DNA of 64,000 bases from Candidatus Staskawiczbacteria bacterium (GTDB lineage: Bacteria > Patescibacteriota > Minisyncoccia > Minisyncoccales > Staskawiczbacteraceae). The stretch lies in contig JBAZUH010000001.1 of NCBI GenBank assembly GCA_041661545.1, positions 467,877-531,876 on the forward strand, written 5' to 3'. Below are positions 7,939 to 44,066 of this stretch, in pieces; positions within the stretch are counted from its first letter, which is position 1; each line of letters opens with the position of its first letter. The notes beneath the pieces are model-generated. The model was given only the letters and a program-made list of their open reading frames with translations, ran no database searches and was not told the DNA's origin. Made by a program: the position numbers and the translations under genes.

Positions 7939-10900
7939 TTACTGACCTGCAAGATATAAGCTGACTAACGACACTAGCGCAGTTATAATTCTTTGATAAA
8001 TATTTATTATGACAATTCTATTTTCTTCTGTAGTTGGAGGAGTGGTTGGTGGAGTTGTTGGCTGTAAATTTGTTGGAGGTGGAGTTGTTGGCTGTGTGGG
8101 TATTTTATTGCTTGTGCCAAATAAGCTTAAAATAGATAATCTAATTTGATTTAAAGATTGGCCTATATAATCAAGTATTGCTTGAGGTGTAGTTTGGGTT
8201 GCAACTGGAATAATCGTAATAATTGGTTGACCTGGCGTTGCCCCACTACTTACGACCGTCTCTGTACAAGCATTGTTTGTACATGCAAATCCAAATTCAC
8301 AATCATCATCAACTGCACACGAGGTTCCTGCTCCGCCCACTGTTACCGTAATCTCTTCTTCACCATAAACAGCCGAGCCATCATTTGCCGTAGCTCGCAC
8401 AGTAACTGTTCCTACATCAGTAGCTGTCAATAAACCTGTTGAAGAATTAATGGTAGCAGACCCTGTTCCATTTGTTACAGACCACGTTACTGTTTTATCA
8501 TTTGCAATTGCTGGTAATACAGATTCGCTCATTTGCAAAGTTGCGCCGTTAACAACTTCTGTAGCATTGCCTGCGCCAGCAACTGTTATGCTTGTTACCA
8601 AGTAATTATAATAATTAACAGTTCCGTTGGCTGTTCCACCAATAGGATTTTCTGAAGGACTATAAACCTCGGCGTCATCAACTATTCCATCGTTATAAGC
8701 AGAATTTTTAAACGTGGCAACGCCTGTTACAATTCCAGTAGAATCGTTATATGTAGAAGCATAAAATGTAGCTGTTCCACCAATTGACCCTGCGTTATAC
8801 GCTGTATCGGTTCCATCTAAAACTCCAAAAACCGCGTTACCGGTTATAATTCCTGTAGCACCATTATATGAAGAAACTCCGGTACCCGTAAAAGTGTTCG
8901 TATCTGTAGTCCCATTATTTTTCTTTATTATTCCTAAGTTTGTTGTAACTGCTCCATTATTTGTGGTAACAGTTTTGCCCGAATTGTTAGTTACAACAGT
9001 CCCCGTATCAGAATTGGTTGTAACAGTTCCGTTGTTGGTGGTTACTGTAAGGTTGTTGGTAGTTACAGTTCCGCTGTTAGTAGTAACTATTCCGTTATTC
9101 GTGGTAACTGATCTACTCAAATTATTAGTTACAACAGTTCCTGTATCAGAGTTAGTTGTGACTGTTCCGTTGTTTGTAGTTACTGTGAGATTATTTGTGG
9201 TAACAATTCCGCTGTTAGTTGTAATAATTCCATTATTTGTGGTAACAGTTTTGCCTGAATTGTTGGTTACAACAGTTCCTGTAGCAGAATTGGTTGTAAC
9301 AGTTCCATTGTTTGTAGTTACTGTGAGATTATTTGTGGTAACAATTCCGCTGTTAGTGGTAACAGTAAGATTATTTGTAACAACTGTTCCCTCAGATGCG
9401 TTTGTAGTAACTATTCCATTGTTGGTGGTAACAGTAAGATTGTTGGTGGTTACTGTGCCTGTGGCAGAATTAGTTGTGACAGCTCCATTGTTTGTAGCTA
9501 CTGTAAGATCGTTTGTAGTAACTGTTCCATCAACACCGTTAGTTGATACAACCCCGCTGTTAGCGGTAATTGTGCTATTGTTGGTTGCTACAACGCCCGT
9601 AGCTCCATTTGAATTAAGCACCGCACTATTTGTTATAATATTTCCTAAGTTTGCGTTAGTTACTGCTCCTAAATTGTTTGTAATGGTTGCATCATATGGG
9701 TTTGTAGTAACAGTTCCTGTAGCAGAGTTGGTTGTAACAGTTCCGTTGTTGGTGGTTACTGTAAGGTTGTTGGTGGTTACGGTTCCGCCCGAATTGTTAG
9801 TTACGACAGTTCCGTTGTTGGTGGTAACTGTTCCATTATTTATGGTTATAATACCTGTAGCACCAACACTACAACTTCCTGTACCAGATAATTCTCCTAC
9901 TGTTCCCGTAATGGTTGTAACGGTACCATTATTATTATAAAGACCAATGCCAGCACCGTTATTAAGCAACAAGGTTCCACTAATATCTGTAATAGTGCCA
10001 ACATTATGTATTCCATAATTACTAGTATTATTATTTAAAGTTCCACTAATGTCAGTTATTATGCCCCCAGAATAATTAAATATTCCAGAAGTGCCATTAT
10101 TATTATTCAAAGTTCCACTAATATCAGCTATAACACCTTCGTTATAAATACCATAGCTGGCACTGTTATTATCAAAGGTTCCTGTAATATCAACAATTGT
10201 CCCTTGGTTTGTGATATAATATCCATTTGAAATAGCCACGTTACCAAGAGTAACCGAATTCCCATTTAGAATGAAAGGGCCATTAGAACCAGCACTAATT
10301 TCTACCGTAGCACCGTCTGAAGGCACTTGATTTTCTTGCCAATTACCTGCGGTGTTCCAATCTGTGGTGTCGCTACCATCCCAATGATAAGTAGGTTCTG
10401 CATCTACTGCTGTTATGTCAATTGTTAAGCCACTTCCATCTAATGCAACGCCCGTTGCCACACTATATCCAGTTCCTGGAGCACTTATGTCAATAGATGA
10501 GATAACCCCAGTCGTATCTACTGAATCCACATTTACTGTGCAACTATTCCCTGATCCACCAGATGTTGAAATGCCCGAACCTACGTTATATCCTGATCCT
10601 GCTGTATTTATTGAAACTGCTGTAACCATCCCAAGAGCTACGCCATTTATATCAACAGAGAAATCGTTATTCCCGCCACCATTTGTTGCTATCATAGACC
10701 CTGTACTATAGCCAGAACCTACAGAAGTCAACGTCCAGGCAGTTACCTCTCCACTCCCGCCCACACTATCAACATAAATAGTTGCATTATACGAACCAGC
10801 TTGAATTGTTAAAGTTTCACCACCTAAATACCCAGAACCCTGAGAATATGTTACTACAGATACAACAGCTCCAACAATACCATCAACACTATCAACATTA

Positions 10901-12708
10901 ACATAACCATTAAAGCTATCCGCATATACATTTAAAACATCACCCTGTTGATAACCAGAGCCCCCCGAGCTAAGAGACACGCTTGTTATTGCGTTAGTGG
11001 CTGAATTAGTTGCTGTTACTATAACGCTACCATCATTATTGCCCCCTGGCACTGAAAAAGTTTGACCTATTGGATAATTACTATATCCCGCATTACTCAA
11101 CGAAACACTCACCAATCCATTTGTATAAACTGGGTCTACAATATAATCAAAATCAACACTGCCTATTACTTTTAAATCAAACAGGTCTGTGGGGGTTTGA
11201 AGATTGGTTAATAAAACTTTTTGAGTTTTGGCTTCAGCAATGTTTTCAAATGTTGCAACTAGTGGGCCGTGAGTAACATTTCCATTTTCATCTGTGTACG
11301 CAGGGTAAACTTCAACTTTACCTGGGTTATTTAGGTTGGTTGCTTTAGCATGAATTGTATTATCTTTTGTATTGTCTAAAATGCCATCAAAGGTAACTCT
11401 TACATATTGATTGTTGGTGATGGTGATATAATTGTTGTCTTGGAATCTTACTGTATCATATATATCAGCTAGTATATTTTGTTGTTCATCTAAGTGGAAT
11501 GCTTGGGAGATAAAGATAATATTAAATACTTGGGTTGATAAATGAGGAACTGTCCATTCAACATAGTCTAGTTTACCATTGTTATCTGTGTCGTAGGCAT
11601 GAAATGCAACCTGCTGATTGCTTTCATTTTCCCATTGGATTTGTATTCTATTCTCTTGACCTACTTTAAATATTTCAGGAATCTTGGTTGAGGCTAATAC
11701 GTCGGTAATTGGAGCTGCTGGGTTTTCTTCTACCGAGGAAACTGTTACTTGTTGACCCAAGTCTGTAATTTCTGAAATTATTTCCGTAGTTTGAGTAATA
11801 TATTCTACAGCTACAAAATTTTCTTCTATGATTGGGTCTTCAGTTATGATTGGGTCTTCGGTTATTTCAGGAGCTACTATTGATTCTTCTATCGAAGTTT
11901 CCTGAACTGTTACTTCAGTTGATATTTCTGGTATTATTGGCTCTTCAGTTATAGTTTCTTCTGAAGTTATTGGTGAAACTTCTTGTTCGGTTGTTGGCAA
12001 AACTTCTTGTTCGCCTAAATTTTGTTCTAATAAAATTTCTGTAGGCAAGGCTTCAACAACTTCAGTTATTTCTGAAACTTCTTGTGATATATCAACATAT
12101 GTGGCCTCTGAGGTTTGAATAATTTCTTGAGCTTCTGAGTTGTTAGTAATTACTTCTGTGGCATTTTCTATAGATTCTGACAAATCAGCCGAGAAGTATT
12201 CATAAACATTATTTAAAAACCCCCAAATATCCTTATAAATAGGACTTAATGAAAACATAAATCCTTGATTATTTGAATTTTTCGATGGATATATTGCTAG
12301 CTGTTGTCGTTGAGCTAAAGATAATATATTTGTTGGCTTAGACAAAAGAATTTTATTTGCTGCATCTTTAGTAACTAAAGCTGTTTTTATATTCTTTGCA
12401 TCTTGGGGAAGCTTTACTAAATATTTTCCCTGCATAACTTCGCTCTTAGCTACTAGAGTAGTATATTTTACTTGCTGGCCTACTACAACTTGCTCTTGCA
12501 GTATGGTAGTTCCTGTTGCTATTTTATCTTTTGGTATTTTAGGAAGAAAAATAAAAACACCTATAATTAAAAACATTATTACAGATAGTGAAAATGTAGA
12601 GAGTAGAATGCGGTTGTTTCGTGTTTTCTTTTTTTGATAATTTCCAACAATATCTACAGAAGATATTTCTTTTGAAAATTTTTGATTTTTTATTTTTTTA
12701 TTTAACAT
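7939..12708 (-). CDS. Giant cell-surface protein 1 (N-terminal TM anchor, Thr/Asn-rich tandem repeats, Big_2-like Ig domain, conserved C-terminal tail)
   Basis: 1589 aa from the ATG at 12708 (the track ORF starts at a TTG at 12717). It has a TM helix LLSTFSLSVIMFLIIGVFIFL, about 46-aa TNNGTVTTNS repeats, a Big_2-like segment (ATLQMSESVLP..TVTWSVTNGTGSATINSSTGLLTA) and a Cys-rich knot CAVDDDCEFGFACTNNAC. Confidence 0.9.
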   Translation of the reverse strand: MLNKKIKNQKFSKEISSVDIVGNYQKKKTRNNRILLSTFSLSVIMFLIIGVFIFLPKIPKDKIATGTTILQEQVVVGQQVKYTTLVAKSEVMQGKYLVKLPQDAKNIKTALVTKDAANKILLSKPTNILSLAQRQQLAIYPSKNSNNQGFMFSLSPIYKDIWGFLNNVYEYFSADLSESIENATEVITNNSEAQEIIQTSEATYVDISQEVSEITEVVEALPTEILLEQNLGEQEVLPTTEQEVSPITSEETITEEPIIPEISTEVTVQETSIEESIVAPEITEDPIITEDPIIEENFVAVEYITQTTEIISEITDLGQQVTVSSVEENPAAPITDVLASTKIPEIFKVGQENRIQIQWENESNQQVAFHAYDTDNNGKLDYVEWTVPHLSTQVFNIIFISQAFHLDEQQNILADIYDTVRFQDNNYITITNNQYVRVTFDGILDNTKDNTIHAKATNLNNPGKVEVYPAYTDENGNVTHGPLVATFENIAEAKTQKVLLTNLQTPTDLFDLKVIGSVDFDYIVDPVYTNGLVSVSLSNAGYSNYPIGQTFSVPGGNNDGSVIVTATNSATNAITSVSLSSGGSGYQQGDVLNVYADSFNGYVNVDSVDGIVGAVVSVVTYSQGSGYLGGETLTIQAGSYNATIYVDSVGGSGEVTAWTLTSVGSGYSTGSMIATNGGGNNDFSVDINGVALGMVTAVSINTAGSGYNVGSGISTSGGSGNSCTVNVDSVDTTGVISSIDISAPGTGYSVATGVALDGSGLTIDITAVDAEPTYHWDGSDTTDWNTAGNWQENQVPSDGATVEISAGSNGPFILNGNSVTLGNVAISNGYYITNQGTIVDITGTFDNNSASYGIYNEGVIADISGTLNNNNGTSGIFNYSGGIITDISGTLNNNTSNYGIHNVGTITDISGTLLLNNGAGIGLYNNNGTVTTITGTVGELSGTGSCSVGATGIITINNGTVTTNNGTVVTNNSGGTVTTNNLTVTTNNGTVTTNSATGTVTTNPYDATITNNLGAVTNANLGNIITNSAVLNSNGATGVVATNNSTITANSGVVSTNGVDGTVTTNDLTVATNNGAVTTNSATGTVTTNNLTVTTNNGIVTTNASEGTVVTNNLTVTTNSGIVTTNNLTVTTNNGTVTTNSATGTVVTNNSGKTVTTNNGIITTNSGIVTTNNLTVTTNNGTVTTNSDTGTVVTNNLSRSVTTNNGIVTTNSGTVTTNNLTVTTNNGTVTTNSDTGTVVTNNSGKTVTTNNGAVTTNLGIIKKNNGTTDTNTFTGTGVSSYNGATGIITGNAVFGVLDGTDTAYNAGSIGGTATFYASTYNDSTGIVTGVATFKNSAYNDGIVDDAEVYSPSENPIGGTANGTVNYYNYLVTSITVAGAGNATEVVNGATLQMSESVLPAIANDKTVTWSVTNGTGSATINSSTGLLTATDVGTVTVRATANDGSAVYGEEEITVTVGGAGTSCAVDDDCEFGFACTNNACTETVVSSGATPGQPIITIIPVATQTTPQAILDYIGQSLNQIRLSILSLFGTSNKIPTQPTTPPPTNLQPTTPPTTPPTTEENRIVIINIYQRIITALVSLVSLYLAGQ

Positions 12709-12785
12709 AAACAACAATATATTCTTATTATATTATCATATAATAATTTTAAAAAGGAAGCAACAAATTTAAATATACAATTTCT

Positions 12786-12814
12786 TTGACATAATACAAA
12801 TAAAAGTGTAATAT
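12786..12814 (+). promoter_or_regulatory. Sigma70-type promoter of the C39-like/PEP-CTERM gene
   Basis: TTGACA (12786..12791), a 17-nt spacer, then TAATAT (12809..12814). Confidence 0.6.
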
Positions 12815-12871
12815 AAAGTTGCTTTTCTCGCCTCTTTGAAAATTCAACAACTAGAATGAAAGGAACGCTTT

Positions 12872-13675
12872 ATGAAACATAAGCATATGGTAGCGCTAGC
12901 AATGGCGCTAATGATTTCTTCGGCGAACGCCGTTGTAATAACGGGAGTACCGTCTTACACAAACTATCACGGCTGCTCACCAACTTCTGTCGGCATGATC
13001 CTGGGCTACTGGGATTTACAAGGTTATAGCAACCTTTTTACTGCCTCGGGTAGTGACGTGATGCTGACAACCAACGTCCAGGGCCAAATCTCCTCTGATG
13101 ATCACAATCTCAGATATGATTCAACTCCCGACAACACCACCATCCCAATTTCCTACACAAGCATCGCCGACTATCTTGGGACATCTGTTGATCCATTAGG
13201 ATATGGCGCAAGCTCAGTTGCTACTACAGGGGCAGCTACAGTGGCCTATGCTTCATCGCGTGGGTATACATTCACAACAGCAAACAAAACGTTTTCCAAC
13301 ACTTGGAATGCTCTTGTCGCAGAAGTCAATGCTGGACGGCCAATGCTGTTATTTGTTGATTCTAATGGCGACGGAACAGTTAACCATACCGTGACTGCCA
13401 TAGGTTATGACACCAACTACAATGGAAATGGACAATATTATTTCTGCTACAACACGGGGCATGAAGATGAAGCCATCGTTGATGCTTATAAATTTCAAAG
13501 CTATGTTGGTGGAGGTAAACCATTCGGAGTTTATGGTGGCATCACCGTTAACCCCGGAGTTATTCCCGAGCCAAACACTGCGATGGTTCTCATTGTTACC
13601 GCGATGGGACTTTCATTCATACGGCATCGTGCCGTTTCCCGGACCAACCTCAAGGCCCGGGCTTTTTTTAAATAA
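12872..13675 (+). CDS. Secreted papain-like (peptidase C39-like) protein with a PEP-CTERM-type C-terminal anchor
   Basis: Signal peptide MKHKHMVALAMALMISSANA. Candidate Cys motif GCSPTSVGMILGYW and His motif HTVTAIGYD. The C-terminus IPEPNTAMVLIVTAMGLSFIRHR follows the pattern PEP + TM + basic. Mid-GC composition. Confidence 0.65.
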   Translation: MKHKHMVALAMALMISSANAVVITGVPSYTNYHGCSPTSVGMILGYWDLQGYSNLFTASGSDVMLTTNVQGQISSDDHNLRYDSTPDNTTIPISYTSIADYLGTSVDPLGYGASSVATTGAATVAYASSRGYTFTTANKTFSNTWNALVAEVNAGRPMLLFVDSNGDGTVNHTVTAIGYDTNYNGNGQYYFCYNTGHEDEAIVDAYKFQSYVGGGKPFGVYGGITVNPGVIPEPNTAMVLIVTAMGLSFIRHRAVSRTNLKARAFFK

Positions 13676-13684
13676 ATATACATC

Positions 13685-13721
13685 AAAAAAAATACCCTGA
13701 CTTTACGTTAGGGTATTTTTT
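13685..13721. terminator. Bidirectional intrinsic terminator
   Basis: aaaaaaaATACCCTgactttacgttAGGGTATttttt. Confidence 0.8.
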
Positions 13722-13736
13722 ATTAAATTATAATAA

Positions 13737-16700
13737 TTATTGTGCAGACTCCCCACCAATATACATACCTAATATAGAAATTAAGGTATTTATAATTTTT
13801 TCATAAATATTTATAACTGCTGATCTATTTTCTTCGGACGTTGGTGTTGATGTTGGTGTTTGATTTAAAGGAAGCGTATTGGGTTGTAAATTATCAGGAC
13901 CAGTTGTTGGTTGAGCGGGCGTTATAAAGTTTAATCTTAACAAACCAATAGATTTTCTAATTTCGTCTAAAGCTTGGCCCATATAGATCATTATTGATTG
14001 AGAAGTAGTTTGAATTGCATCTATTGCTAATGGAACTATTGAAGTTGCTGTGTAAGAACCGCCGCCTCCACCACCAACTGTTGGAACTGTTATGGTGGCT
14101 GTAGCAGTATGGTCTCCGTCTGTGGTAGTTACTGTTATTGTGGCTGTTCCAGCTGATATTGCTGTTACTAATCCTGTGTCGCTAACTGTGGCAACCGATG
14201 TATTGCTTGAAGACCAGGTTACACTTGAGTCTGTTGCATTGTCTGGAGCAACTGTGCTTGTGAGTTGGTGAGTTGCATCAACTAAGATGCTGGCTGTGCT
14301 GTCATCTAATGTAACTCCTGTGACAGAAATATTTAAAGTTGTTACTGTAATTTCTAATTCTCCATATACATTAGAACCATCATTAGCTGTTGCTCGCACT
14401 GTTACTGCTCCTACGCCTGTTGCTGTTAACAACCCAGAAGAATTAATTGTAGCGGTTCCTGTTCCATCTGTTTTTGACCATGTTACAGTTTGGTCTGTTG
14501 CATCTACAGGTAAAATTGATACAGACATTTGTAAAGTTGAGCCGTTAACAACTGTTGTTGCTGATTCTGCGCCAGAGACGGTGATGCTAGAAACTAATGT
14601 ATCTTCTGGTGCAATTTCTGCACAAACCCCATCTGCGCATTCTAATCCAAAATCGCAATCATCATTAATTGCGCAAACCGAGCCTGCACTCATGTCTGAA
14701 CAATAACCATTGCTAGTGCAAAAAGCTGAACTACAATCACCTCCCACTGTACATGCTTCACCATTTGCTGCTGGTGGAGCAGGAGGTATCTCCACGCATT
14801 GATTTGTATCCCATGTATAACCCTCTGAACACAAATATGTTCCACTATAATCGGTTACTGTGGCGCCGGTAAAATCTGGAGGGCCATAAGCAGATCCGGT
14901 CATATCAATTGTTCCATAATTATCTACTGTGCTTGTATATGTTCCACCGTAAATAGTTCCTACGATTTGGTTAATTGCACTTACAACATAATTTCCTGCA
15001 TAGATATCACCCGAATTATCAATCCCCCAACCATCTCCCGTGTTAGTTAGTGTGCCCGTAATATTTGCGATACTTCCATGATTATCAATGCCATAACCAG
15101 TGAGAGTATTTGCAACAGTTCCCGAAATATCAGTAATTGCACCACCATTATAAATACCAGATCCGTTGTCACTATTATTAATGGTTCCTGAAATATTGGT
15201 GATAGTGCCACCATTAAATACGCCGTAGCTAGTATCACCGCTACTATTTATTGTTATAGAAGCAATTGTAACTCCCGTAACACTACCTGAAACATATACT
15301 CCACGGCCACTGCCTGATACATTAATAGAATATGAACTACCTCCACTCAACGTAACGTTGCTTGCGCTAATAACAATACAATTTCCACTAGATACAGACA
15401 AATCTGTGGTTAAGGTGTAAGTACCTGATGAAGTTATTGTTCCACAAGTGCCAACGCTAGTGGTAAGAGGCAATACACACATTGCGTTGCTTAAGTTATC
15501 TGCGCCCAACACTTTATTGATACTTGTACAATCAAAGCTAGTTACAGGGGTAACTGTTCCACTGTTGTTAGTAATTGTTCCAACAATTGTAAGGCCCGCA
15601 TTAAGGTTAAGAGTTCCAGCAGCTTCTACGGTTATATTGCCTGTAATAGTGCCCGCCCCATTAACAACCCCATCATAAACAACAAATCCCACCCCACTAC
15701 TAGTATTATTTATTGTAGCTGTATTGGTGACTGTAATTGTGCCAGAATTATATACACCATAGCCTGCACCACTGTTAGTAACTGTTCCTGAAATATTAGA
15801 AATCGTAGCACCATCATTATTCACAATACCATAACCACTTGCATCGGTGTTTTCAACAGCTCCTGAAATATTGGTAATTGTTCCCAAGTTATAAATACCA
15901 TAGTTATTGGCATTATTGGTGAAGGTTCCCGAAATGTCGGTGATAACAGCATTAGCGTTATTAGTAATACCAACGACACTAGTATTAGTAAATGTTCCTG
16001 AAATATCTGTAATGGTGCCGTAGTTACTAATACCACCATTAGAATTTATAACTGTTCCTGAGATATCGGTGATAATAGCATAAACATTGTTGACAATGCC
16101 ATTACCGCCACCACTAATTGTAAGAGCCCCTGAAATATCAGTTATTGTGCCATAGTTACTAATAATGTTACCTGCACCGCTATTTGTAATAGTGCCCGTA
16201 ATATCAGTAATAATTCCAGAGGTGTCATTATAAATACCAATATTACCAGAACTATTATCAAAAGTTCCGCTAATATTTGTAATTAATCCTTGGTTTAAGA
16301 TAGCTTGACTGGCCGAACCAGTAAAAGAAATCGTTCCGGTTATATCAACAATAGTGCCCTGGTTGATAAGATAATATCCCGATGAACTACTAATAGTTAA
16401 ATTTAAAATTGTGACTGAGGTACCACTTGGAATAACAGGGCTATTCATTGCACTATCTACAATTTGTACTGAAGTGCCCTCTGGAGGGACAACATAATCT
16501 TGCCAATTTGATGAATCGTTCCAATCTGTACTATAAGAACCTACCCAAGTGTAAAGGGGTTCTGCATCTACTGCTGTTATATCAATTGCTAAACCATTCA
16601 TATCTAACGAAACGCCACTTGTTACTGAATATCCAGTTCCCGGGGCACTTATTGAAATAGATGATATAGTTCCAGCAATAGAATCTATATTTATTGAACA

Positions 16701-18911
16701 GTCTGACCCAGAGCCACCAGTTGCTGAATTAGAACCTGTGCCATAGTTGCTTCCCCCAGAAGATAATGAAATACCAGTTACTGTTCCCTGACCTGCTGAT
16801 ATACTAACTTCAAATCCAGAACCACTCCCGCCAGACGTACCAACAAAGCTATTAGAAGAATAATTAGTTCCGCCGTATGATACTGAAAATGATGTTACCT
16901 CACCACTACTGCCCACGCCACTAATGTAAATCGTAGCGTTATAGTCTCCTGAACTAATTGTAACTTCATTGCCCTCAGTATAGCCACTTCCTGCCATATA
17001 GGTACTTGCATCATAAACTACGCCATAAGGTCCATCCACAGATGTTACAGTAACATATCCATCATAATTACCGCCTTGAACAGTCAAAGAATCATTTTCT
17101 TGGAACCCATAACCACCTGAGTTGAGAGAAACGCTTGATATGCTACCTGTTCCTCCAGAAATTTCTGCTACGCTTATACTGCCGTCGCTATTCCCACCTG
17201 GGACTGAAATAACTTGACCTACTGAATAATAGCCATATCCTGCACTATTTAACGAAACACTCACCAATCCACTTGTATAAACAGGGTCTACAATATAGTC
17301 TATGTCAACACTTCCGATAATTTTTAAGTCAAATAAGTCGGTGGGGGTTTGGAGGTTGGTCAATAAAACTTTGTGGGTTTTGGCTTCAGCAATATTTTCA
17401 AACGTTGCAACTAGTGGGCCGTGTGTGACATTTCCGTTTTCATCGGTGTATGCAGGATAAACCTCTATTCTAGCTGGGTTGTTTGGGTCAGTTGCTTTGG
17501 CATGAATTGTATTATCATTTGTATTATCTAAAATGCCATCAAATGTAACTCTTACATATTGATTGTTGGTGATGGTGGTATAGTTGTTGTCTTGGAATCT
17601 TACTGTATCATATATATCAGCTAGTATATTTTGTTGTTCATCTAAGTGGAATGCTTGGGAGATAAAGATAATATTAAATACTTGGGTTGATAAATGAGGA
17701 ACTGTCCATTCAACATAGTCTAGTTTACCATTGTTATCTGTGTCGTAGGCATGAAATGCAACCTGCTGATTGCTTTCATTTTCCCATTGGATTTGTATTC
17801 TATTCTCTTGACCTACTTTAAATATTTCAGGAATCTTGGTTGAGGCTAATACGTCGGTAATTGGAGCTGCTGGGTTTTCTTCTACCGAGGAAACTGTTAC
17901 TTGTTGACCACTGTCAGTTACTTCGGCCACTATTTCGGTAGCTACAGTAGTATATTCTATGGCTACAAATTCTTCTGGAACATTTTCAACCACTGGGGTT
18001 ATTGCTAATTCTTCGGCTGGTGCTTCAATAGGTGTTTCTGTTGATGTTCCAACAGAAGTTTCTGATGATATAGGCTCCTCGGCCTGCACTTCTTCGGCTG
18101 GAACTTGTGCTAACATTTGTTCCGGTATTTCTGGCATTATCAATTCTTGGGTTGTAGCTTCTTCTAAAACTGGGGCTTCTGTTTCTTGCTCACTTGAATT
18201 TTGCTCTAATATAGCCTCAACAATTGGGGTTGTTTCTATTTCTGGTGCAATAGTTGTTGCTTCCAACGATATATCAACATAAGTGGCTTCTGGGGTTTGA
18301 GTAATTTCTTGTGTTTCTGAGTTGTTAGTAACTACTTCTGTGGCATTTTCTATGGCCTCTGACAAATCAGCAGATAAATATTTATAAACATTATTTAAAA
18401 AACCAGATAAAAATTTAAAAGAAGGACTTAACGATGCTGAAAATATTTGATTATTATTATTTGTTGGCAAAATTGCCAATTGTTGCCTTTGTGCTAAAGA
18501 CAATATTTTATTTGGCTTAGATGATAAAATTTGATTGGCTGTATTATTATTAATTGTGCTTACCTTAATATTCTTTGCATTTTGAGGAAGTTTTGCTAAA
18601 TATTTTCCATTTATAACTTCGCTTTTTGCTACTAAAGTAGTATATTTTACTTGCTGGCCTGCTACAACTTGCTCTTGCGGTATGGTAGTTGAACTAGCCA
18701 CCTTGTCTTTGGGTATTTCAGGAAGAAAAACAAAAACACCAGCCACTAAAAATGCAACCAAAGATAATGAAAACGTTGAAAACAGAGTGCGGTTGTGCTG
18801 TTTTTTTTCTTTTTTATACTTATAGGCCTGGACTAACTCATCGGGTATAACTATCTCATCAGAGGATAAATTTATATTAGTATCTATTTTTTTATTTTTT
18901 TCAGAAGTCAT
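13737..18911 (-). CDS. Giant cell-surface protein 2 (paralog of giant gene 1; beta-helix-like ITDISGT repeats, two or three Big_2-like domains, Cys-rich knots)
   Basis: 1724 aa. The N-terminal 560 aa or so are homologous to giant gene 1, including a 326-nt identical block. Repeats of about 20 aa (GTITDISGTxTN), Big_2-like segments and the same type of C-terminal tail. Confidence 0.9.
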   Translation of the reverse strand: MTSEKNKKIDTNINLSSDEIVIPDELVQAYKYKKEKKQHNRTLFSTFSLSLVAFLVAGVFVFLPEIPKDKVASSTTIPQEQVVAGQQVKYTTLVAKSEVINGKYLAKLPQNAKNIKVSTINNNTANQILSSKPNKILSLAQRQQLAILPTNNNNQIFSASLSPSFKFLSGFLNNVYKYLSADLSEAIENATEVVTNNSETQEITQTPEATYVDISLEATTIAPEIETTPIVEAILEQNSSEQETEAPVLEEATTQELIMPEIPEQMLAQVPAEEVQAEEPISSETSVGTSTETPIEAPAEELAITPVVENVPEEFVAIEYTTVATEIVAEVTDSGQQVTVSSVEENPAAPITDVLASTKIPEIFKVGQENRIQIQWENESNQQVAFHAYDTDNNGKLDYVEWTVPHLSTQVFNIIFISQAFHLDEQQNILADIYDTVRFQDNNYTTITNNQYVRVTFDGILDNTNDNTIHAKATDPNNPARIEVYPAYTDENGNVTHGPLVATFENIAEAKTHKVLLTNLQTPTDLFDLKIIGSVDIDYIVDPVYTSGLVSVSLNSAGYGYYSVGQVISVPGGNSDGSISVAEISGGTGSISSVSLNSGGYGFQENDSLTVQGGNYDGYVTVTSVDGPYGVVYDASTYMAGSGYTEGNEVTISSGDYNATIYISGVGSSGEVTSFSVSYGGTNYSSNSFVGTSGGSGSGFEVSISAGQGTVTGISLSSGGSNYGTGSNSATGGSGSDCSINIDSIAGTISSISISAPGTGYSVTSGVSLDMNGLAIDITAVDAEPLYTWVGSYSTDWNDSSNWQDYVVPPEGTSVQIVDSAMNSPVIPSGTSVTILNLTISSSSGYYLINQGTIVDITGTISFTGSASQAILNQGLITNISGTFDNSSGNIGIYNDTSGIITDITGTITNSGAGNIISNYGTITDISGALTISGGGNGIVNNVYAIITDISGTVINSNGGISNYGTITDISGTFTNTSVVGITNNANAVITDISGTFTNNANNYGIYNLGTITNISGAVENTDASGYGIVNNDGATISNISGTVTNSGAGYGVYNSGTITVTNTATINNTSSGVGFVVYDGVVNGAGTITGNITVEAAGTLNLNAGLTIVGTITNNSGTVTPVTSFDCTSINKVLGADNLSNAMCVLPLTTSVGTCGTITSSGTYTLTTDLSVSSGNCIVISASNVTLSGGSSYSINVSGSGRGVYVSGSVTGVTIASITINSSGDTSYGVFNGGTITNISGTINNSDNGSGIYNGGAITDISGTVANTLTGYGIDNHGSIANITGTLTNTGDGWGIDNSGDIYAGNYVVSAINQIVGTIYGGTYTSTVDNYGTIDMTGSAYGPPDFTGATVTDYSGTYLCSEGYTWDTNQCVEIPPAPPAANGEACTVGGDCSSAFCTSNGYCSDMSAGSVCAINDDCDFGLECADGVCAEIAPEDTLVSSITVSGAESATTVVNGSTLQMSVSILPVDATDQTVTWSKTDGTGTATINSSGLLTATGVGAVTVRATANDGSNVYGELEITVTTLNISVTGVTLDDSTASILVDATHQLTSTVAPDNATDSSVTWSSSNTSVATVSDTGLVTAISAGTATITVTTTDGDHTATATITVPTVGGGGGGSYTATSIVPLAIDAIQTTSQSIMIYMGQALDEIRKSIGLLRLNFITPAQPTTGPDNLQPNTLPLNQTPTSTPTSEENRSAVINIYEKIINTLISILGMYIGGESAQ

Positions 18912-18935: not shown

Positions 18936-19424
18936 CTATTTTGTTATAATATTGCATTCATTTTCACTAAAAAATATTTTACACATATTATTTAACAAAC
19001 TCATTGTACTTTCTATTGGTAAATCGTTAGTGTTGGCCACTTCTTCTAATGATAACATCCCTTTTTGCAAATTTTCTAAAGAAATAATTTTTAAATTATC
19101 TAATCTTACCCACCCGGCTTTTTCAGACCAAACCCATCCAGAAACCATGCCATCTAAATTAACGCTTGCGCCTCCGTAATTAGGGTTAAAATTAATCCAT
19201 CCAACATTTTGCGAATATCCATAACCAATTAAATTGTTTTCGTTATCTTTTATAATTTTATAATCAATTAAATTACATGAATCTGTGTTTAAACAATTTA
19301 AAGATATCCAGCCTGCATTTTCAGAATAAATATACCCTACTATATCTTGGCTATTTGCGCTAACAAGAAAAGCAAAACTAATACTTATTAGTATAAAGAA
19401 TAATAGAATAGTTAATTTTGGCAT
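18936..19424 (-). CDS. Secreted repeat protein (SENxGWIxxN repeats)
   Basis: Signal peptide followed by three repeats: SENAGWISLN, SQNVGWINFN and SEKAGWVRLD. Confidence 0.55.
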   Translation of the reverse strand: MPKLTILLFFILISISFAFLVSANSQDIVGYIYSENAGWISLNCLNTDSCNLIDYKIIKDNENNLIGYGYSQNVGWINFNPNYGGASVNLDGMVSGWVWSEKAGWVRLDNLKIISLENLQKGMLSLEEVANTNDLPIESTMSLLNNMCKIFFSENECNIITK

Positions 19425-19563: not shown

Positions 19564-21102
19564 TTATTTCCTTACCTTCTCGGTAACCCAAAATCCCATG
19601 TATTTGCCTAACATTAAACGAATTTGTGCATCTAGCGCGGGCATAGAACCAAAAACAATTAAAGTAATGGGCAAAAATAGCCACTGCAAAAATACCGATG
19701 ATTTTTTAAACCATCTTATATACCACTTCATATTTTTGGGCACAGGGGGCAAAAGCATTGTACTTAAAATTGCAGAAATAAGCATGCCCACCATTGAAAA
19801 TGTCATAATTTGACCAGTTAAAATTGGTAAATTAAAAGACAAAACAGAAAAGTTAAATTGATTGCCACCTAACAATATAGGCAACCAACCTAACAAAAAT
19901 AAAAGTAAAGCAGCGGTTGCCCAAGACCAAAAACCGTCAATAATTGTATAAAGATGGCCTATTTTTTCTTTTAAAGGTATTTCTTTATTGTTTAAAAAAG
20001 CAAACATCAAATAAGGAATTTCGGCGCAACCCCATGCCCAGCGTTTTTGTTGCTTATATTGATTTAAAACTGTTTTCCATGAATTTTTTGCCATTACCGC
20101 ATCCATAGAAACCAAATAATATATAGGAACCACTCTATAATTTCCGTTGTAATACAAATAAGCTCGCCAAAAAATTCTAGAGTCATCTGAAACAACATTT
20201 GCAGGATATCCAACTTCAAAAAAAGTTTTTGCTGGCGTTGAGTGCGAAGAATAAGTTGTAAGTTTTTCCTCTCTTTCTTGCTGTATCATTTGCCAAAAAG
20301 TATTAGAAGTAGAAACCACTCTAGAAAAAAAGTTAACTGTCCAAATATTGTTATTATAAACTGGCACTGGCTGATAACTGGCAAATTCAGCATCTTTTTC
20401 TGTTAAATAATACCAAGTTAAGCAAGCAAAATACTGTGGAAAAATTTTTGTATCAACATCAAATGTTGAAATTAAAATATTTTCATAAGGAATATTTAAT
20501 TTATCTATAATTTTTTCTTTAACTTCTTTTCCTGCATGTGCAGTATTTGACCCCTTGCCACTTATTTCGCCCACCAATCCATCTGGATGTACAGAAACTA
20601 AAAATTTATAAAATTTGGTTGAATATTTATTAGCAATAATGTTGGCTTGGTCTTCAAAAAATTTTCCAGCTCTTTGTTCTACAGCTAAAACTATTATCAT
20701 TCTTTCTTTAGGATAATTAGATTCTATTAAAGTATTTAAACTCTCCTCTATAAGTTCTTTTCCTTCTCCATAGGTTGGAAGAATAATTACATGATAAATA
20801 TCTTTCCATCGTAACTGCTTTAAATCTTTTAACCAATCTTTTTTCATATGCAACTTAACTTTAAAATAACCTACTACTTGATGCAAAGAAAAATAAAAAA
20901 CTCTAAAAAGATAATAAAAACAAAAACATATAACAAAAATTGCCACTCCCGAAGGAAATAACCATGAAAAAACAAACACACCTAAAAGTGTGCCCAAACT
21001 TAACATTGCAGGAATCATTTCAAAAAATCTATATAATCTCCTGTCTTTTTTATTTTTTATATCTGAAGCTTTAGAAATGTCCAGATAATCTTTTTTCTCC
21101 AT
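19564..21102 (-). CDS. Processive family-2 glycosyltransferase (cellulose/chitin-synthase-like, multi-TM)
   Basis: VIILPTYGEG, FDVDT and the QQKRWAWG (QxxRW) motif, with flanking TM helices. Confidence 0.8.
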   Translation of the reverse strand: MEKKDYLDISKASDIKNKKDRRLYRFFEMIPAMLSLGTLLGVFVFSWLFPSGVAIFVICFCFYYLFRVFYFSLHQVVGYFKVKLHMKKDWLKDLKQLRWKDIYHVIILPTYGEGKELIEESLNTLIESNYPKERMIIVLAVEQRAGKFFEDQANIIANKYSTKFYKFLVSVHPDGLVGEISGKGSNTAHAGKEVKEKIIDKLNIPYENILISTFDVDTKIFPQYFACLTWYYLTEKDAEFASYQPVPVYNNNIWTVNFFSRVVSTSNTFWQMIQQEREEKLTTYSSHSTPAKTFFEVGYPANVVSDDSRIFWRAYLYYNGNYRVVPIYYLVSMDAVMAKNSWKTVLNQYKQQKRWAWGCAEIPYLMFAFLNNKEIPLKEKIGHLYTIIDGFWSWATAALLLFLLGWLPILLGGNQFNFSVLSFNLPILTGQIMTFSMVGMLISAILSTMLLPPVPKNMKWYIRWFKKSSVFLQWLFLPITLIVFGSMPALDAQIRLMLGKYMGFWVTEKVRK

Positions 21103-25492: not shown

Positions 25493-27289
25493 ATGCCAAC
25501 GAACCAACCCCAAACCGAAACCATGAAAACCATGATCCAATTGGCGACTTCGATCGCCCTGATGATCATTCTTGGTGCCTGCGGCCCTCGAGGTAGCAGC
25601 ACCAACAACGGCGACGAGAGCGGTGACCCCGCCCTCGCGAGAATCAACAACGACCTCAACAACCTGAGCAGGCGCTCCGAAGCCGCCACCTCAACGGTGG
25701 CCGAGCGGTCAAATGACGAACGGTTTGCGGCTCTCCAGCTGCAGCTGGCCGTCATTTCAAACCAGCTCGCCGTCAGTGGCGTCGCAGTTTCGCCGGTGTC
25801 GGACACCGACGAACTCATCATCGCCTCCTCCGCAACCCCCGCCGAACGCGGCATCGTGTTGGCCGGAACCGGTGATACGGTTCCAGGTGAGAATCGACCA
25901 AGATTAGGCACAGCCGCGGGCGGATTGATTCCGTCCCAGGCCACCCAAATCCCGGTTGCCGCAACAACGCCAACTGCACCAACCCAAACCGCACCGCAGC
26001 CAACCCCAACCGCACCAGCCGCGAGAACGGTGGTCCAAGCATGGACCTACCCAGTTGCACAGGGAGACACATACGAGGGCTTAGCCAAAGCCTTCGGCAT
26101 TCCCGAAGCCGCGCTTCGGCGGGCAAACAACGACGTGGTGCTCGAAGTCGGGCGCGTAATCGTTGTACCGATGCCGTTGGACACTACCGCCACCGCCACC
26201 GCCAACAACACCGAGCTAATTCGCGAAATCCGGGGCGGCAACATCGCCATCCTGGAGGTGCTGGAGGCGCTACGGGCGCAACAACAACAGGCTCAGCAAG
26301 CGCTGGCTCAAACGGAGAGACTGGGTGACCAGTCCTTCCGCGGGGTCTCAGCGGCCGAATACGCCGCCTGCCCAACCTGCCAAGCGGCACGGCAACCGAC
26401 GTATTATGCGCCGGAGCCGTCGTACGCCCAGCCGTATCAGCAACCCTACTGTCAGCCGAGCTACGGCTACCAACGGCCATATTACCAGGACTACGGCAGT
26501 TACGGTGGTGGCTACGGTGGAGGAAACAGCATTAGTATCAACTTGTCGCAGTCGCAACAGCAACAGCAACAGGGGTACTACCCCCAGCCGTGCCCAACGC
26601 CGACACCACAACCCCAACCGTACGATCCCTGCCCACCCGGCTCGCCGAGAAATCGGCAGTTGGGTTGGCAACCAGGTGATGGCCAATGGTGGAATAACGG
26701 CACCGGCAGGAATGCCGGAGCCGTGGCAGCGAGCTTAACCCCATACAGCAGCGGGGACTACCTCGCCGCTGCAAGCAGGTCAAGCTCCTCCAGCCCATCC
26801 GTTTCGGCATTGTCGCCAGGCGGAACGCCTTCACCAACCCGCCTAAATGGGGGCCTCAGAGCTCTCAACAACGGCGGAACTGGTGCGGCACCAACAGCGC
26901 GCGGTGGTGGTTACGACTACCGTGCAGCTTTGGCCAGCAGAACTCCGGCCGCAAGTCGGAGCACCGCAACGGCCAATAAGCCGGCAAGTCGGGTACAAAC
27001 CTACAAGCCGGCGACGAAGCCGTCAACGGCACGCGCGACACCCAGTCGTGCGGCACCCAGTCATGCGACATCGAGTCGGCAGACGATGAGTCGGGCGACA
27101 CCAAGTCGTACAACGATGAGTCGTGCACCCAGTAGGACTCCGAGTCGGCAGACGATGAGGACACCCAGTCGCACTCCGAGTCGGCAAACGATGAGGACCC
27201 CGAGTCGTGCGACAGTCAGTCGGGCACCGAGTCGTGCTCCGACGATGAGTCGGGGATCGTCAAGCGGCGGCATGATGCGCCGCAGGTAA
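25493..27289 (+). CDS. GC-rich LysM-domain lipoprotein with Gln/Tyr/Pro-rich and Ser-Arg repeat regions
   Basis: Lipobox MKTMIQLATSIALMIILGAC (alternative start at 25523). LysM-like segment YPVAQGDTYEGLAKAFGIPEAALRRANNDVVLEVGRVIVVP. C-terminal TPSRQTMRTPSR repeats. The opposite-strand ORFs are GC artefacts. Confidence 0.75.
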   Translation: MPTNQPQTETMKTMIQLATSIALMIILGACGPRGSSTNNGDESGDPALARINNDLNNLSRRSEAATSTVAERSNDERFAALQLQLAVISNQLAVSGVAVSPVSDTDELIIASSATPAERGIVLAGTGDTVPGENRPRLGTAAGGLIPSQATQIPVAATTPTAPTQTAPQPTPTAPAARTVVQAWTYPVAQGDTYEGLAKAFGIPEAALRRANNDVVLEVGRVIVVPMPLDTTATATANNTELIREIRGGNIAILEVLEALRAQQQQAQQALAQTERLGDQSFRGVSAAEYAACPTCQAARQPTYYAPEPSYAQPYQQPYCQPSYGYQRPYYQDYGSYGGGYGGGNSISINLSQSQQQQQQGYYPQPCPTPTPQPQPYDPCPPGSPRNRQLGWQPGDGQWWNNGTGRNAGAVAASLTPYSSGDYLAAASRSSSSSPSVSALSPGGTPSPTRLNGGLRALNNGGTGAAPTARGGGYDYRAALASRTPAASRSTATANKPASRVQTYKPATKPSTARATPSRAAPSHATSSRQTMSRATPSRTTMSRAPSRTPSRQTMRTPSRTPSRQTMRTPSRATVSRAPSRAPTMSRGSSSGGMMRRR

Positions 27290-27631: not shown

Positions 27632-28540
27632 ATGGCAAGCAAGAAAAAAACCTCGCCGGCAGGGACGCCGGCAACACCACCGGCGAAACCGGCCCCCCGG
27701 CGACGCCCAGCGTCGTTGGCACCGGCGGCAACATCGCCGCTCGTGGCGACGACAACCCCGACACCCCCGCTACCCGCGGGGACAATCAGGCGGACGCCGA
27801 CACCGGCGCCCTCGGGTGCCACAACCCCAACTCCAACCCCGACGCCGCCAGCGCCCACTCCGGCACCGGCACCCGCAACGTTGACGACGGTGGCAACACC
27901 GGCGACAGCACCGGTACCGCCTGCGCCAACAACCCCAGCAGTAACACCGCCATCGCCGACTCCGGCACCCGCCGTCACCCCGACCCCGCCCGCCGCGGTC
28001 ACACCGCGCAGAGCAGGGAGACGAATGGTCGTCACCCGGGTTGTAGGTTTAGTGTTCGTCGTGCTGTTGATAAAATGGGCCTTCAGGTCCGACGAACCGG
28101 CGGCAACGGCGACAACCACCAACAACGCGGCGTACGTCACGGCGTTGGAAAAAGCCACCGCGCTCCTGAAAAAGCAAGCGGTGGAAATGGACCGCCTAAC
28201 GGCGGAGGTTGAAGCCCTCAAAAAGGGCAACACAACCCCGCCCAAGGGCGGCACCACCGCTGGTACTGGTGGCACCGGTACTACCAACCCCAACCCCCAA
28301 CCCCCAACCCCAGTAAACTATCGTCGGTCGGCACCGACGATAGAATCCGCCCATGTCCGCCAACTCCAGGCGGATATCATGGCCATGAAGGTCAAAGCTG
28401 CCCGGACTGTTCGGGCAGCTGCATGGGGTCCAATGGACCCCGACTCAAGGGCAGCAGCACAAGATCAGGTCAACGCCCTTGAAGTGGAGTTGGCCAATAT
28501 GGAGGCCGTCCTGGCTCACGCCAGGGCAACAGGAATGTGA
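27632..28540 (+). CDS. GC-rich Pro/Thr/Ala-rich single-pass membrane protein with a C-terminal coiled coil
   Basis: Basic N-terminus MASKKK, a long PTPAP-rich region, TM helix MVVTRVVGLVFVVLLIKWAF, and heptad-like ALEKATALLKKQAVEMDRLTAEVEALKK. Confidence 0.7.
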   Translation: MASKKKTSPAGTPATPPAKPAPRRRPASLAPAATSPLVATTTPTPPLPAGTIRRTPTPAPSGATTPTPTPTPPAPTPAPAPATLTTVATPATAPVPPAPTTPAVTPPSPTPAPAVTPTPPAAVTPRRAGRRMVVTRVVGLVFVVLLIKWAFRSDEPAATATTTNNAAYVTALEKATALLKKQAVEMDRLTAEVEALKKGNTTPPKGGTTAGTGGTGTTNPNPQPPTPVNYRRSAPTIESAHVRQLQADIMAMKVKAARTVRAAAWGPMDPDSRAAAQDQVNALEVELANMEAVLAHARATGM

Positions 28541-38103: not shown

Positions 38104-38207
38104 TAAACTAGCTCATTTACTCATATAACGTTTTGATAAACACCGTCAGCCTACAGACACCCAACAAACCAACAACACCAACAACCGCCCGCAAGGGCCC
38201 TACCAAA

Positions 38208-39716
38208 GTGAAAGCAACCAAAAAAGCCGCGAAACAAGCGGCAGACACCAACGCCGTGCAAGCGGCGCCCGCAGAAGAAACCACCCCCGTGGTGGCCACC
38301 AAGACCAAGCCAGTTGCCAAGGGTGGCGCGAAAGCCCGCCCCAAAACGACTGTGCTCAGCAGTGCCAACTCCAACCCGTTCGCCAACTTGGGTGACGCCT
38401 TGACCGAATTGAGCCTCGGCGTGCCCGACCTCGACTCGCTCGCCGACGTTGACAGCGTTGGGCAAGGCCTCGAGGCCAAGAAGGCCGCCGCCGTCAAAGT
38501 GCGCGAAGGCATCGCCAATGCCCTCAAGTTCCTGCTTGGTCTTTTCCGCCGGCTTGCCGGTTGCGAAGACCGCATCGAGAAGCGGTTCATCCAGGAGGAG
38601 CTCCAAGAGTCGGAAGACAATGCCCGGGGTTACTTGGGCAAAGTGCTCAACCTCAAGGGCGCCCTCCGCACCATCGCCGCCGGCACGTACCTCAAAACCG
38701 TGCTCACCATGGACTACTCCTCGCCCGACGAGGTCGCCATGATGCTCCGGAATTTGGTGGACAATGGGCTCATCGTCTCCAAGGGTGAAGGCCCCTGCGT
38801 GACCATTGGGTATCAGGTGTATCGCCTTGGTGACTTCGGCTTCGACGCCGAGGATGTCAGGGAAATCACCGGCGTGATTGAGCAGTTCTCCCGCGTGGTG
38901 AAAACGAAGGAACGCGAACGGAGGGCGCAACTCCAGAAGGAAATCGCGGGGCAATCCCAGATTTCCCTGCAAGAAGCGCTTGACGGGAAAACCGGCAAAT
39001 GCCTGGTGACTGTTCCGGCCGAATCGTTCATCGACCGCTCCACCAAAAAGCCCGTGTGGCGTGGAGGTGGCGAGGTCCTATTCGACTTTGCCGACAAGCT
39101 CATCAAACCAATCCGCGCCAGCGGGTCGGTGGAACGCTTGGTCGGCGACCTCGCTGACCGTGGTGGGAGAATCACCCGCCACTCGCTTACGTGGGAGAAG
39201 GCCTCCGGACTGAACGGACTGGCGCAGGGCATCCAGCGGAAACTGGATGTCTCATGGAGTGATGCCCAGGATTTGGCCCGCGACTTCCTCACCATTTGGC
39301 ACCTCCTCAACCGTGGCATTCGCCACGCCGAGGAAGTCGTCAAGCAGGCTGACGAGCTGGCCCAACTGACTGCGAAGGCCGAGATCACCGCCGTGCAGTT
39401 CTTCGGGCTCAACGGCACCAAGGACGGCAAGCCCATCGAGGGCAAGCCTGCTCTCCTGCAACTCCAGGGAGTGGTCCGCTTGGAGGACCGCAACCTGTAC
39501 AATCCGTTCTTTCTCGCCAGGAGGATGACGGAAGAAGGCAAGGAGCTCGTCGAGGCGCTGGAAATTCCGGCATACCTCGAGGGATACCTTGAAACCGGGA
39601 AGAAATTCCCAATCGATCGCTGGAACACCCCTGTCGGCGACCTGATTCAAAAGATCAAGGGGCAAACCGAGATGACTGTCGCGACCGCGGCCGCCATCGC
39701 CAACCCGGCCGAGTGA
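38208..39716 (+). CDS. GC-rich protein of unknown function with a Lys/Ala-rich (histone H1-like) N-terminus
   Basis: The long ORF opens at a TTG at 38133. GTG at 38208 is favoured because the CCAAC-rich leader plus AAGGG resembles the leader of 27632. Amino-acid composition is balanced on the + strand. The minus-strand ORFs are GC artefacts. Confidence 0.7.
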   Translation: MKATKKAAKQAADTNAVQAAPAEETTPVVATKTKPVAKGGAKARPKTTVLSSANSNPFANLGDALTELSLGVPDLDSLADVDSVGQGLEAKKAAAVKVREGIANALKFLLGLFRRLAGCEDRIEKRFIQEELQESEDNARGYLGKVLNLKGALRTIAAGTYLKTVLTMDYSSPDEVAMMLRNLVDNGLIVSKGEGPCVTIGYQVYRLGDFGFDAEDVREITGVIEQFSRVVKTKERERRAQLQKEIAGQSQISLQEALDGKTGKCLVTVPAESFIDRSTKKPVWRGGGEVLFDFADKLIKPIRASGSVERLVGDLADRGGRITRHSLTWEKASGLNGLAQGIQRKLDVSWSDAQDLARDFLTIWHLLNRGIRHAEEVVKQADELAQLTAKAEITAVQFFGLNGTKDGKPIEGKPALLQLQGVVRLEDRNLYNPFFLARRMTEEGKELVEALEIPAYLEGYLETGKKFPIDRWNTPVGDLIQKIKGQTEMTVATAAAIANPAE

Positions 39717-44007: not shown

Positions 44008-44041
44008 GACACAGAGCCCTTTCTATGCTAATATATACCCA
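44008..44041 (+). promoter_or_regulatory. Putative promoter of the 3D-domain gene
   Basis: TTGACA, a 17-nt spacer, then TAATAT. An SD-like AAGGGAG lies upstream of the ATG at 44067. Confidence 0.55.
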
Positions 44042-44066
44042 TACTTCCGAAAGGGAGTTTTTAATT

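Follow-up and report, generated by a model that had tools for sequence, protein, structure and literature searches.

A 64-kb stretch of DNA (64,000 nt; hereafter the window) from the 738-kb genome of a Candidatus Staskawiczbacteria bacterium, a member of the Candidate Phyla Radiation (CPR), carries a gene for a C39-like cysteine peptidase that ends in a tail related to PEP-CTERM sorting signals and lies between two genes for giant surface proteins. The gene (12872..13675, + strand) was delimited from the list of open reading frames (ORFs) and a match to PF13529, and its 267-amino acid (aa) product is predicted to be secreted and anchored at its C-terminus; the span 12786-13721 given in the original prediction extends from promoter to terminator. 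The protein belongs to a known family and its tail is of a known type; the host is unexpected and the partner is conserved. It appears reasonably probable that this is an anciently acquired, surface-tethered peptidase which uses an old sorting tag as an anchor and works with the giant proteins next to it.

Catalytic domain and predicted fold

Family Peptidase_C39_2 (PF13529) matched residues 31-183 of the protein with 40.1 bits (Pfam cut-off 24; E = 6.8e-10), in line with the C39-like peptidase originally predicted. Alignment of homologues, an AlphaFold2 model and Foldseek delimit a papain-fold catalytic domain comprising residues 21-228 (12932..13555, + strand). Cys35 (codon 12974-12976), which is part of a YHGC motif, is kept in at least 90% of 33 homologues, and His172 (codon 13385-13387, likewise on the + strand) is invariant. 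In a family profile alignment the region around His172 matches the DHAV..GY motif of the papain-family protein dionain-1, and His172 falls where papain has its catalytic histidine (His159 motif). The Cys and His motifs hence align to the catalytic dyad. At the N-terminus, the sequence encoded by 12872..12931 (+ strand) reads as a Sec-type signal peptide, MKHKHMVALAMALMISSANA, with predicted cleavage after ANA (AXA site), and an N-terminal hydrophobic segment is present in all homologues aligned.

The AlphaFold2 model, which was computed from the alignment, reached a mean predicted local distance difference test score (pLDDT) of 89.8. Cys35 opens a helix (residues 35-49) at its N-terminus, pLDDT is low at residues 1-20, and a further helix runs across residues 236-266. 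The top Foldseek matches in the PDB all belong to clan CA (IdeS/Mac-1/IdeC, UfSP, the papain family and staphopain), with probabilities of 0.9-1.0 and TM-scores of just 0.35-0.43; a C39-like type VI effector domain (9jdd) was also among the structural matches. Judged by profile match and predicted structure, the protein is a genuine papain-fold, C39-like cysteine peptidase of clan CA.

The same structural matches raise the alternative of an outward-facing hydrolase that acts on the host or prey of an episymbiont, be it as a cell-wall amidase, a host-surface protease or a protease of immunoglobulin-like domains. IdeS/Mac-1 are secreted proteases of host proteins, the effector domain 9jdd would fit such a role as well, and the family is found in many architectures and in free-living diderms that have no giant partner. 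This alternative is considered unlikely. It leaves unexplained why CPR copies constantly adjoin proteins with one particular C-terminal module (see below), and TM-scores to all solved structures are so low that no specific substrate class can be read from them.

The C-terminal tail and the sorting question

The protein ends in ...GVIPEPNTAMVLIVTAMGLSFIRHRAVSRTNLKARAFFK. Its PEP-CTERM-derived tail (13559..13642, + strand), delimited by scores of hidden Markov models (HMMs) and by family homology, consists of V-I-P-E-P (PEP codons at 13565-13573), 16 hydrophobic residues (N235-I250) that form a helix, and a basic end, R-H-R-A-V-S-R-T-N-L-K-A-R-A-F-F-K. The basic residues are R251, H252, R253 and R257, and 10 further residues follow beyond R257. 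PEP motif, hydrophobic helix, basic cluster and an N-terminal signal-like segment are thus all present in the peptidase. The PEP-CTERM HMMs TIGR02595 and PF07589 reported no match when run on the whole 267-aa protein. With TIGR02595 (cut-off 16), 14.7 bits were obtained for the last 46 residues and 16.3 bits for a 29-residue piece; PF07589 gave 13.2-14.9 bits on the tail alone against a cut-off of 20.7. By score alone the case is borderline, and chance resemblance to PEP-CTERM would stay possible.

The homologues give a clearer picture. TIGR02595 scores range from 26 to 30 bits for the tails of diderm homologues and from 9.5 to 29.3 bits for those of CPR orthologues, and a precomputed PF07589 match is carried by 16 of 33 database homologues. 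Nearly every diderm homologue closes with [VI]PEP, a helix and RRR at the aligned position, and PEP-CTERM-like tails were seen in 45 of 75 short cluster representatives. Because nearly all diderm homologues bear canonical tails at the aligned position, the tail in the window is, as read from this alignment, a diverged PEP-CTERM domain by descent. The PEP-CTERM signal named in the original prediction is thereby upheld by homology, with HMM scores that remain at or below the thresholds.

Beyond the basic cluster the window protein carries a lineage-specific extension, ..SRTNLKARAFFK (13638..13672, + strand), which was recognised by BLAST against locus L082, the closest relative. Positions 13638-13668 of the window (CCCGGACCAACCTCAAGGCCCGGGCTTTTTT) are identical in 29 of 31 nucleotides to positions 4879-4909 of L082, where the sequence forms a hairpin with a T-run that starts 22 nt past the end of the stop codon. 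A stretch of 36 nt which in L082 contains the ancestral stop is missing from the window. Given this loss and the match downstream of it, the last 11-12 residues are a translated former terminator, i.e., the product of read-through. Elsewhere among the CPR copies, another domain takes the place of the tail in L083 and P0008, and the basic cluster has been lost in L085.

PEP-CTERM has been described as confined to two-membrane bacteria, where it always occurs together with EpsH and usually in many copies (median of 8 PEP-CTERM proteins per genome), and as going with exopolysaccharide genes (Haft 2006, PMC1569441). Patescibacteria are described as monoderm (PMC11665869). Neither a diderm host with exopolysaccharide genes nor a set of several PEP-CTERM proteins (as counted on part of the genome) was encountered here. 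No polytopic membrane ORF in the window matched an exosortase model; these ORFs comprise major facilitator superfamily and ZIP proteins, VirB2-like pilins, small transporters and proteins without assignment. Likewise, there was no such match among the tested polytopic ORFs of locus L163, and no exosortase is listed among the precomputed Pfam matches for called genes of the CPR loci. A 263-aa ORF with seven predicted membrane helices, located 3 kb from the peptidase gene in L163, was considered and set aside: it had no NCBIfam match at E <= 10 and no homologue in the window or in other CPR loci. In the window plus nine other CPR loci (203 kb), no xPEP tail was found besides the peptidase's own, and ten diderm loci (207 kb) yielded six extra ones. 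In the literature searched, no paper connects exosortase or PEP-CTERM with Patescibacteria; the sole co-mention was an entry in a reference list.

Since no exosortase and no second PEP-CTERM protein turned up in this DNA, and since the tail is replaced, eroded or read through in some CPR copies, the evidence points to an orphan tail that is used as a plain membrane anchor. The alternative that true exosortase-type sorting operates in this CPR lineage, with an unrecognised or distant enzyme that cuts at PEP and transfers or releases the peptidase in a monoderm cell, draws on the conservation of the motif. [IV]PEP is intact in all seven tail-bearing copies from CPR-type loci, whose domains share 37-71% identity and whose helix sequences vary freely, and P232 is invariant in an alignment of ten sequences of the clade. 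A weakly glycosyltransferase family 2 (GT2)-like membrane protein encoded near the peptidase-giant module (19564..21102) would also suit this alternative, as PEP-CTERM systems go with exopolysaccharide genes (PMC1569441); its GT2 matches, however, are far under threshold. Set against the missing exosortase matches in the window and CPR flanks, the lack of a second PEP-CTERM protein in 203 kb of CPR DNA as compared with the usual median of 8 (PMC1569441), the degraded, replaced or extended tails and the lack of papers, in the literature searched, that connect such a system with Patescibacteria, sorting of this kind is improbable. Another option, rather doubtful but of a different kind, is that selection has kept PEP in monoderm, Staskawiczbacteria-like CPR cells, which may have no exosortase at all, because it is read by a different membrane enzyme or has been given a new role such as docking to the C-terminal module of the giant proteins. 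If so, peptidase and giant protein would form a CPR-specific surface-maturation module that is important for the episymbiotic lifestyle.

The GT2-like candidate is a 512-aa membrane protein encoded beyond the giant genes on the - strand. It contains a QQKRW (QxxRW-type) motif, matches GT2 models with E = 0.14-0.47 and may be a divergent processive glycosyltransferase. Its resemblance to a processive GT2 was noted by eye, the Pfam matches lie far below threshold, and the protein was not used as evidence.

A resident gene beside giant surface proteins

Between 7939 and 21102, the peptidase gene is the only one on the + strand, all others being on the - strand. As stated in the original prediction, it is flanked by two paralogous giant genes on the opposite strand. 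Giant surface protein A (7939..12717, - strand; 1592 aa; C-terminal module at 7942-8271) is encoded divergently from the peptidase, and giant surface protein B (13737..18911, - strand; 1724 aa; C-terminal module at 13740-14069) convergently with it. The two are 51-63% identical over most of their length. Giant B has an N-terminal membrane anchor, repeats, Big_2 domains (Big_2 match of 92 bits) and the conserved C-terminal module. In the latter, the pattern N[RKQ]....I.IY[QE]K[IL][IL]..L..[LI][LI].. comes after a helix-like segment and, in many cases, a Pro/Thr-rich linker (..NLQPT.PP..).

A large surface protein adjoins the peptidase in all eight CPR loci (the window, L082, L001, L083, L085/L107, L091, L161 and L163). 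Wherever these loci extend far enough, the partners have an N-terminal membrane anchor and the conserved C-terminal module in common. An HMM of this module, run over 160 loci, matched nine ORFs, all of them in CPR loci, and none in about 150 diderm loci; both giants of L163 match it as well. A database search with the module returned no match at E <= 0.001. The N-terminal 560 residues of giant B, by comparison, are a widespread surface-protein module of Patescibacteria which is fused to many C-terminal domains. Relatives in L164 and L165 share only this N-terminal module. Since the C-terminal module and the peptidase are both missing there, the association is specific to the C-terminal module. 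The surface proteins in these two loci (L164 10001-14310, L165 9593-13931) end in Lcl_C or FISUMP domains and lie beside bAvd and reverse-transcriptase genes, which suggest diversity-generating retroelements.

Gene order differs from locus to locus. In the window it is giant A, peptidase, giant B and an ORF for a 162-aa protein; in L163 a giant is followed by a 162-aa ORF, a second giant in tandem with the first, and the peptidase; in L082, L001, L085, L091 and L161 the peptidase gene faces a single, convergent partner. This variation argues that the giants were duplicated and shuffled around a resident peptidase. In L163 (4128-15013), each giant is split into two ORFs, one for the N-terminal module (545/548 aa) and one for the body (1216/1097 aa); the paired ORFs have identical ends and therefore look like the product of a recent tandem duplication. 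In L082, the peptidase is separated from RecG by two small ORFs, which proved not to be remnants of giant A. The 162-aa secreted protein of the window (18936..19424, - strand) is 45% identical over its full length to the ORF of the same size between the L163 giants and found no family match in profile searches.

An identical protein is deposited at NCBI as 'MAG: C39 family peptidase [Candidatus Staskawiczbacteria bacterium]' on a contig of 737,971 bp, MAG denoting a metagenome-assembled genome. As the composition of the gene is unlike that of its flanks, a diderm fragment misjoined into a CPR contig by assembly or contamination was considered. The probability of this is negligible: only the ORF itself shows the shift in GC content, the independent Logan assembly of SRR18595301 has the same junctions to both giant genes and so excludes a chimera, and the arrangement recurs in several MAGs of other studies.

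The domain belongs to a large family (2149 cluster representatives at E <= 0.001), and relatives are encoded at 113 loci when one genome per GTDB species is considered. Among the best 80 of these 113 loci, nearly all belong to Planctomycetota and the wider Planctomycetota-Verrucomicrobiota-Chlamydiota group, Desulfobacterota, Cyanobacteria, Acidobacteriota, Zixibacteria and similar diderms. The top GTDB match is from another Staskawiczbacteria genome (53% identity), and CPR-type copies as a whole are 37-71% identical to the window peptidase. The closest is L082 (71%), with the order RecG, peptidase, giant. In L083 (about 50%), genes for S10, EF-Tu, EF-G, S7, S12 and M50 are followed by a giant, the peptidase, a small ORF and a second giant. 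L085, L086 and L107 lie in CPR-type context on a 580-kb scaffold of 28% GC, the close copies L091 and L161 have CPR-type context as well, and the most distant copy, L163 (37%), is on an 844-kb scaffold. A metagenome scan aimed at closer CPR relatives returned mostly diderm copies (31-48% identity), with L091 and L107 as sole additions.

In a neighbour-joining tree the CPR copies form one clade (bootstrap 68/100). Its neighbour is a sequence from a contig of 62% GC which also encodes a Kdo kinase and a heptosyltransferase and is therefore of diderm origin. When cluster representatives were added to the tree, the CPR clade held together and gained members without host assignment. An ultimately foreign origin of the peptidase is supported by the occurrence of the family in diderm phyla and by the atypical composition of the gene. 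The simplest reading of these sequence comparisons would be that the gene passed once, in the distant past, from a diderm into Parcubacteria and has long been resident there.

The promoter and leader of the gene agree with such residence. A sigma-70-like promoter, TTGACA-17-TAATAT (12786..12814, + strand; 10 of 12 matches in a pattern scan), precedes it. The 25 nt around this promoter are 92% identical to the orthologous upstream region of L082, and the leaders of the two loci are 94% identical over 16 nt; conservation of this non-coding DNA argues for long residence of the gene. A Shine-Dalgarno-like AAAGGAA stretch lies 5' of the ATG. Between the convergent genes, RNA folding predicted a hairpin with an A-run and a T-run at its flanks (13687..13721; no strand assigned) of -18.5 kcal/mol (z = -5.8), as good a fold being obtained in none of 200 shuffled sequences; it probably is a bidirectional terminator that serves both genes. 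Promoter and terminator thus stand much as the original prediction had placed them, and so does its description of the gene as mid-GC.

GC content of the peptidase gene is 46.6%, and GC content at third codon positions (GC3) is 0.44, compared with about 0.22-0.23 for ordinary neighbouring genes of the window. The shift is limited to the ORF; promoter and terminator are AT-rich and host-like. In most CPR copies (window, L082, L001, L161, L085 and L091), GC3 of the gene exceeds that of its neighbours by 10-22 points; in L087, the diderm sister locus, it falls short of theirs by 20 points. Overall, gene and flanks have the same GC content in diderm loci, whereas the gene exceeds its flanks in CPR loci.

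A 13-nt motif in the leader, TTGAAAATTCAAC (12836..12848, + strand), has an exact second copy at 27571, upstream of the GC-rich gene at 27632, as had been noted in the original prediction. Exact 13-mers are common to 5 of 1485 pairs of 100-nt leaders in the window, which is the background level, and with up to two mismatches 11 matches were observed against 8.4 expected. The orthologous leader of L082 carries TTGAAAATTAAAC at this site. Because this breaks the small palindrome, the motif was kept by descent and not as a palindrome. A regulatory element shared with the gene at 27632 was rejected on account of the leader-pair frequency and the lack of mismatch enrichment, and the proposed link between the peptidase and the GC-rich cassette is treated, on the sequences at hand, as a coincidence.

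These results bear on the view, taken in the original prediction, that the gene was inserted between the giant paralogues by horizontal transfer, which in its strongest form would make it a recent and functionally unconnected arrival. Atypical GC and GC3, a promoter and terminator of its own, a strand opposite to that of its neighbours and the presence of other clearly foreign GC-rich ORFs in the window would all suit a recent insertion. Orthologues of 71%, 53%, about 50% and 37% identity, however, adjoin homologous giants in other CPR genomes, promoter and leader are kept in L082, and the link of the 13-mer to the cassette is at chance level. The single giant of L082 and the tandem giants of L163, which precede the peptidase, further indicate that giants were rearranged round a resident gene. 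The idea of a recent insertion is thus largely refuted by synteny and must be regarded as very unlikely. What stands of the horizontal acquisition is the foreign origin. The splitting of a tandem pair loses its value as a sign of insertion, given that adjacency to giants is conserved in all related CPR loci.

Under the reading favoured here, an ancestor of Staskawiczbacteria-like Parcubacteria would have gained a gene for a PEP-CTERM-tailed peptidase long ago. The protein would leave the cytoplasm via Sec and stay fixed to the outside of the single membrane through its C-terminal helix with the basic, cytoplasmic end, and the gene would have been kept as part of a small module, beside one or two genes for very large surface proteins with an N-terminal anchor. 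Most likely, the peptidase would act on or with these giants at the cell surface, in their maturation, trimming or shedding, and the CPR tail would serve just as a membrane anchor that is not processed by an exosortase. For the proposed processing of the giants, conserved synteny in the eight CPR loci is the best support; the association itself is observed, and the enzymatic step is deduced from it.

Several points weigh against this reading. At the third catalytic position (Asn or Asp), the residue aligned to Asn175 of papain is T195, with the nearly invariant E198 and E200 nearby. The clan CA fold also includes amidases, transglutaminases and cell-wall hydrolases, so that even peptidase activity is presumptive. 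Support for the CPR clade is moderate (68/100 by neighbour joining), and several of its members have no assigned host. GC3 is still raised despite old divergence and conserved synteny. Conserved synteny among related genomes may partly reflect inheritance, and the conservation of PEP while the helix varies hints at recognition by an enzyme, beyond a mere anchor. Finally, the exosortase search reached the window and about 203 kb of CPR DNA, with about 670 kb of the 738-kb genome outside it.

PEP-CTERM has so far been treated as a marker of double-membraned, exopolysaccharide-making and exosortase-encoding bacteria. A PEP-CTERM-tailed enzyme that has long resided in a monoderm, genome-reduced lineage would offer a natural test of the tail without its usual machinery. 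CPR bacteria presumably attach to host cells by means of their giant surface proteins, and strict pairing of the peptidase with a defined subclass of giants nominates a concrete candidate for an enzyme-substrate pair. If the pairing is inherited synteny and the tail an anchor, the case would be one of ordinary, old horizontal transfer.

Other features of the window

Three ORFs of 60-65% GC stand out in the genome of about 32% GC and form two islands (25350-28600 and 38030-39870). They encode a 598-aa protein with a signal peptide and LysM (25493..27289), a Pro/Thr/Ala-rich protein of 302 aa (27632..28540) and a 527-aa protein without family (38133..39716). Each lies behind an AT-rich, TTGACA/TATAAT-like promoter, and CA-rich leaders precede the ORFs at 27632 and 38133. 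The first island starts directly after a tRNA-Leu gene (25226-25310). All three ORFs look like recent foreign insertions. A family of palindromic repeats of 60-68 nt (CCCCAAAAATAGCG..TTTTTTGACACAAAAAA..GCTACCATTTTTGAGGG), 67-93% alike, was found at 28604-28730, 30282-30349, 39800-39867 and 45673-45740; three of the five repeats (two at 28604-28730 and one at 39800) are located directly 3' of GC-rich ORFs.

Beside the first island, 28797-31068 encodes five paralogous small membrane proteins, four of which match the Mbov_0395 (VirB2-like) family of conjugal pilins. A monoderm-type type IV secretion system has been reported for Patescibacteria, and the pilins fit with it. The neighbouring ORF 31025..33715 was considered as a VirB4 candidate and rejected, as it encodes GyrA. 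Further, inverted repeats of 57 nt that are 89% complementary (43850-43906 and 44635-44691) surround an ORF of 178 aa (44025..44561) by a tRNA cluster, and an exact direct repeat of 119 nt (63588-63706 and 63882-64000; period of 294 nt) lies within ORF 62087..63907 at the end of the window.

Comparison with known systems

The tail of the window protein shares its descent with the true PEP-CTERM tails that members of its family carry in Planctomycetota, Desulfobacterota, Cyanobacteria and other groups, and thus with the PEP-CTERM/exosortase (EpsH) system. It differs from that system in its monoderm CPR host and in that the DNA searched yielded neither an exosortase nor additional PEP-CTERM proteins. 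Its HMM scores lie at or under the cut-offs, and 11-12 extra residues follow its basic cluster. LPXTG signals of the sortase system, the usual one in single-membrane bacteria, share the tripartite build of motif, helix and basic end with the window tail, but the motif of the latter is PEP. At E <= 10, models of LPXTG/sortase signals matched two homologue tails (13-19 bits, below cut-offs) and not that of the window.

With respect to the catalytic domain, the protein scores above the threshold of Peptidase_C39_2 (PF13529), its Cys opens the central helix, its His is part of a D/N-H motif with G-Y after it, and the predicted fold is papain-like. The pairing of CPR copies with giant surface proteins sets them apart from described members of this family. 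Peptidase C39 proper, which processes bacteriocins (ComA/LagD), belongs to the same clan and relies on the same Cys/His chemistry. In contrast to it, the window protein stands alone with no adjacent ABC transporter and is predicted to be extracytoplasmic instead of cytoplasmic; the C39 model is absent from its Pfam matches at E <= 10, and no double-glycine leader substrate is evident. The best structural matches, with a Foldseek probability of about 1, are IdeS/Mac-1/IdeC (C66) and the staphopains (C47). These are secreted proteases of Gram-positive bacteria and act on large extracellular proteins with Ig-like domains, and giant B bears Big_2 Ig-like domains. At 8-13% sequence identity and TM-scores of 0.36-0.43, the likeness is one of fold and gives no sign of a common specificity.

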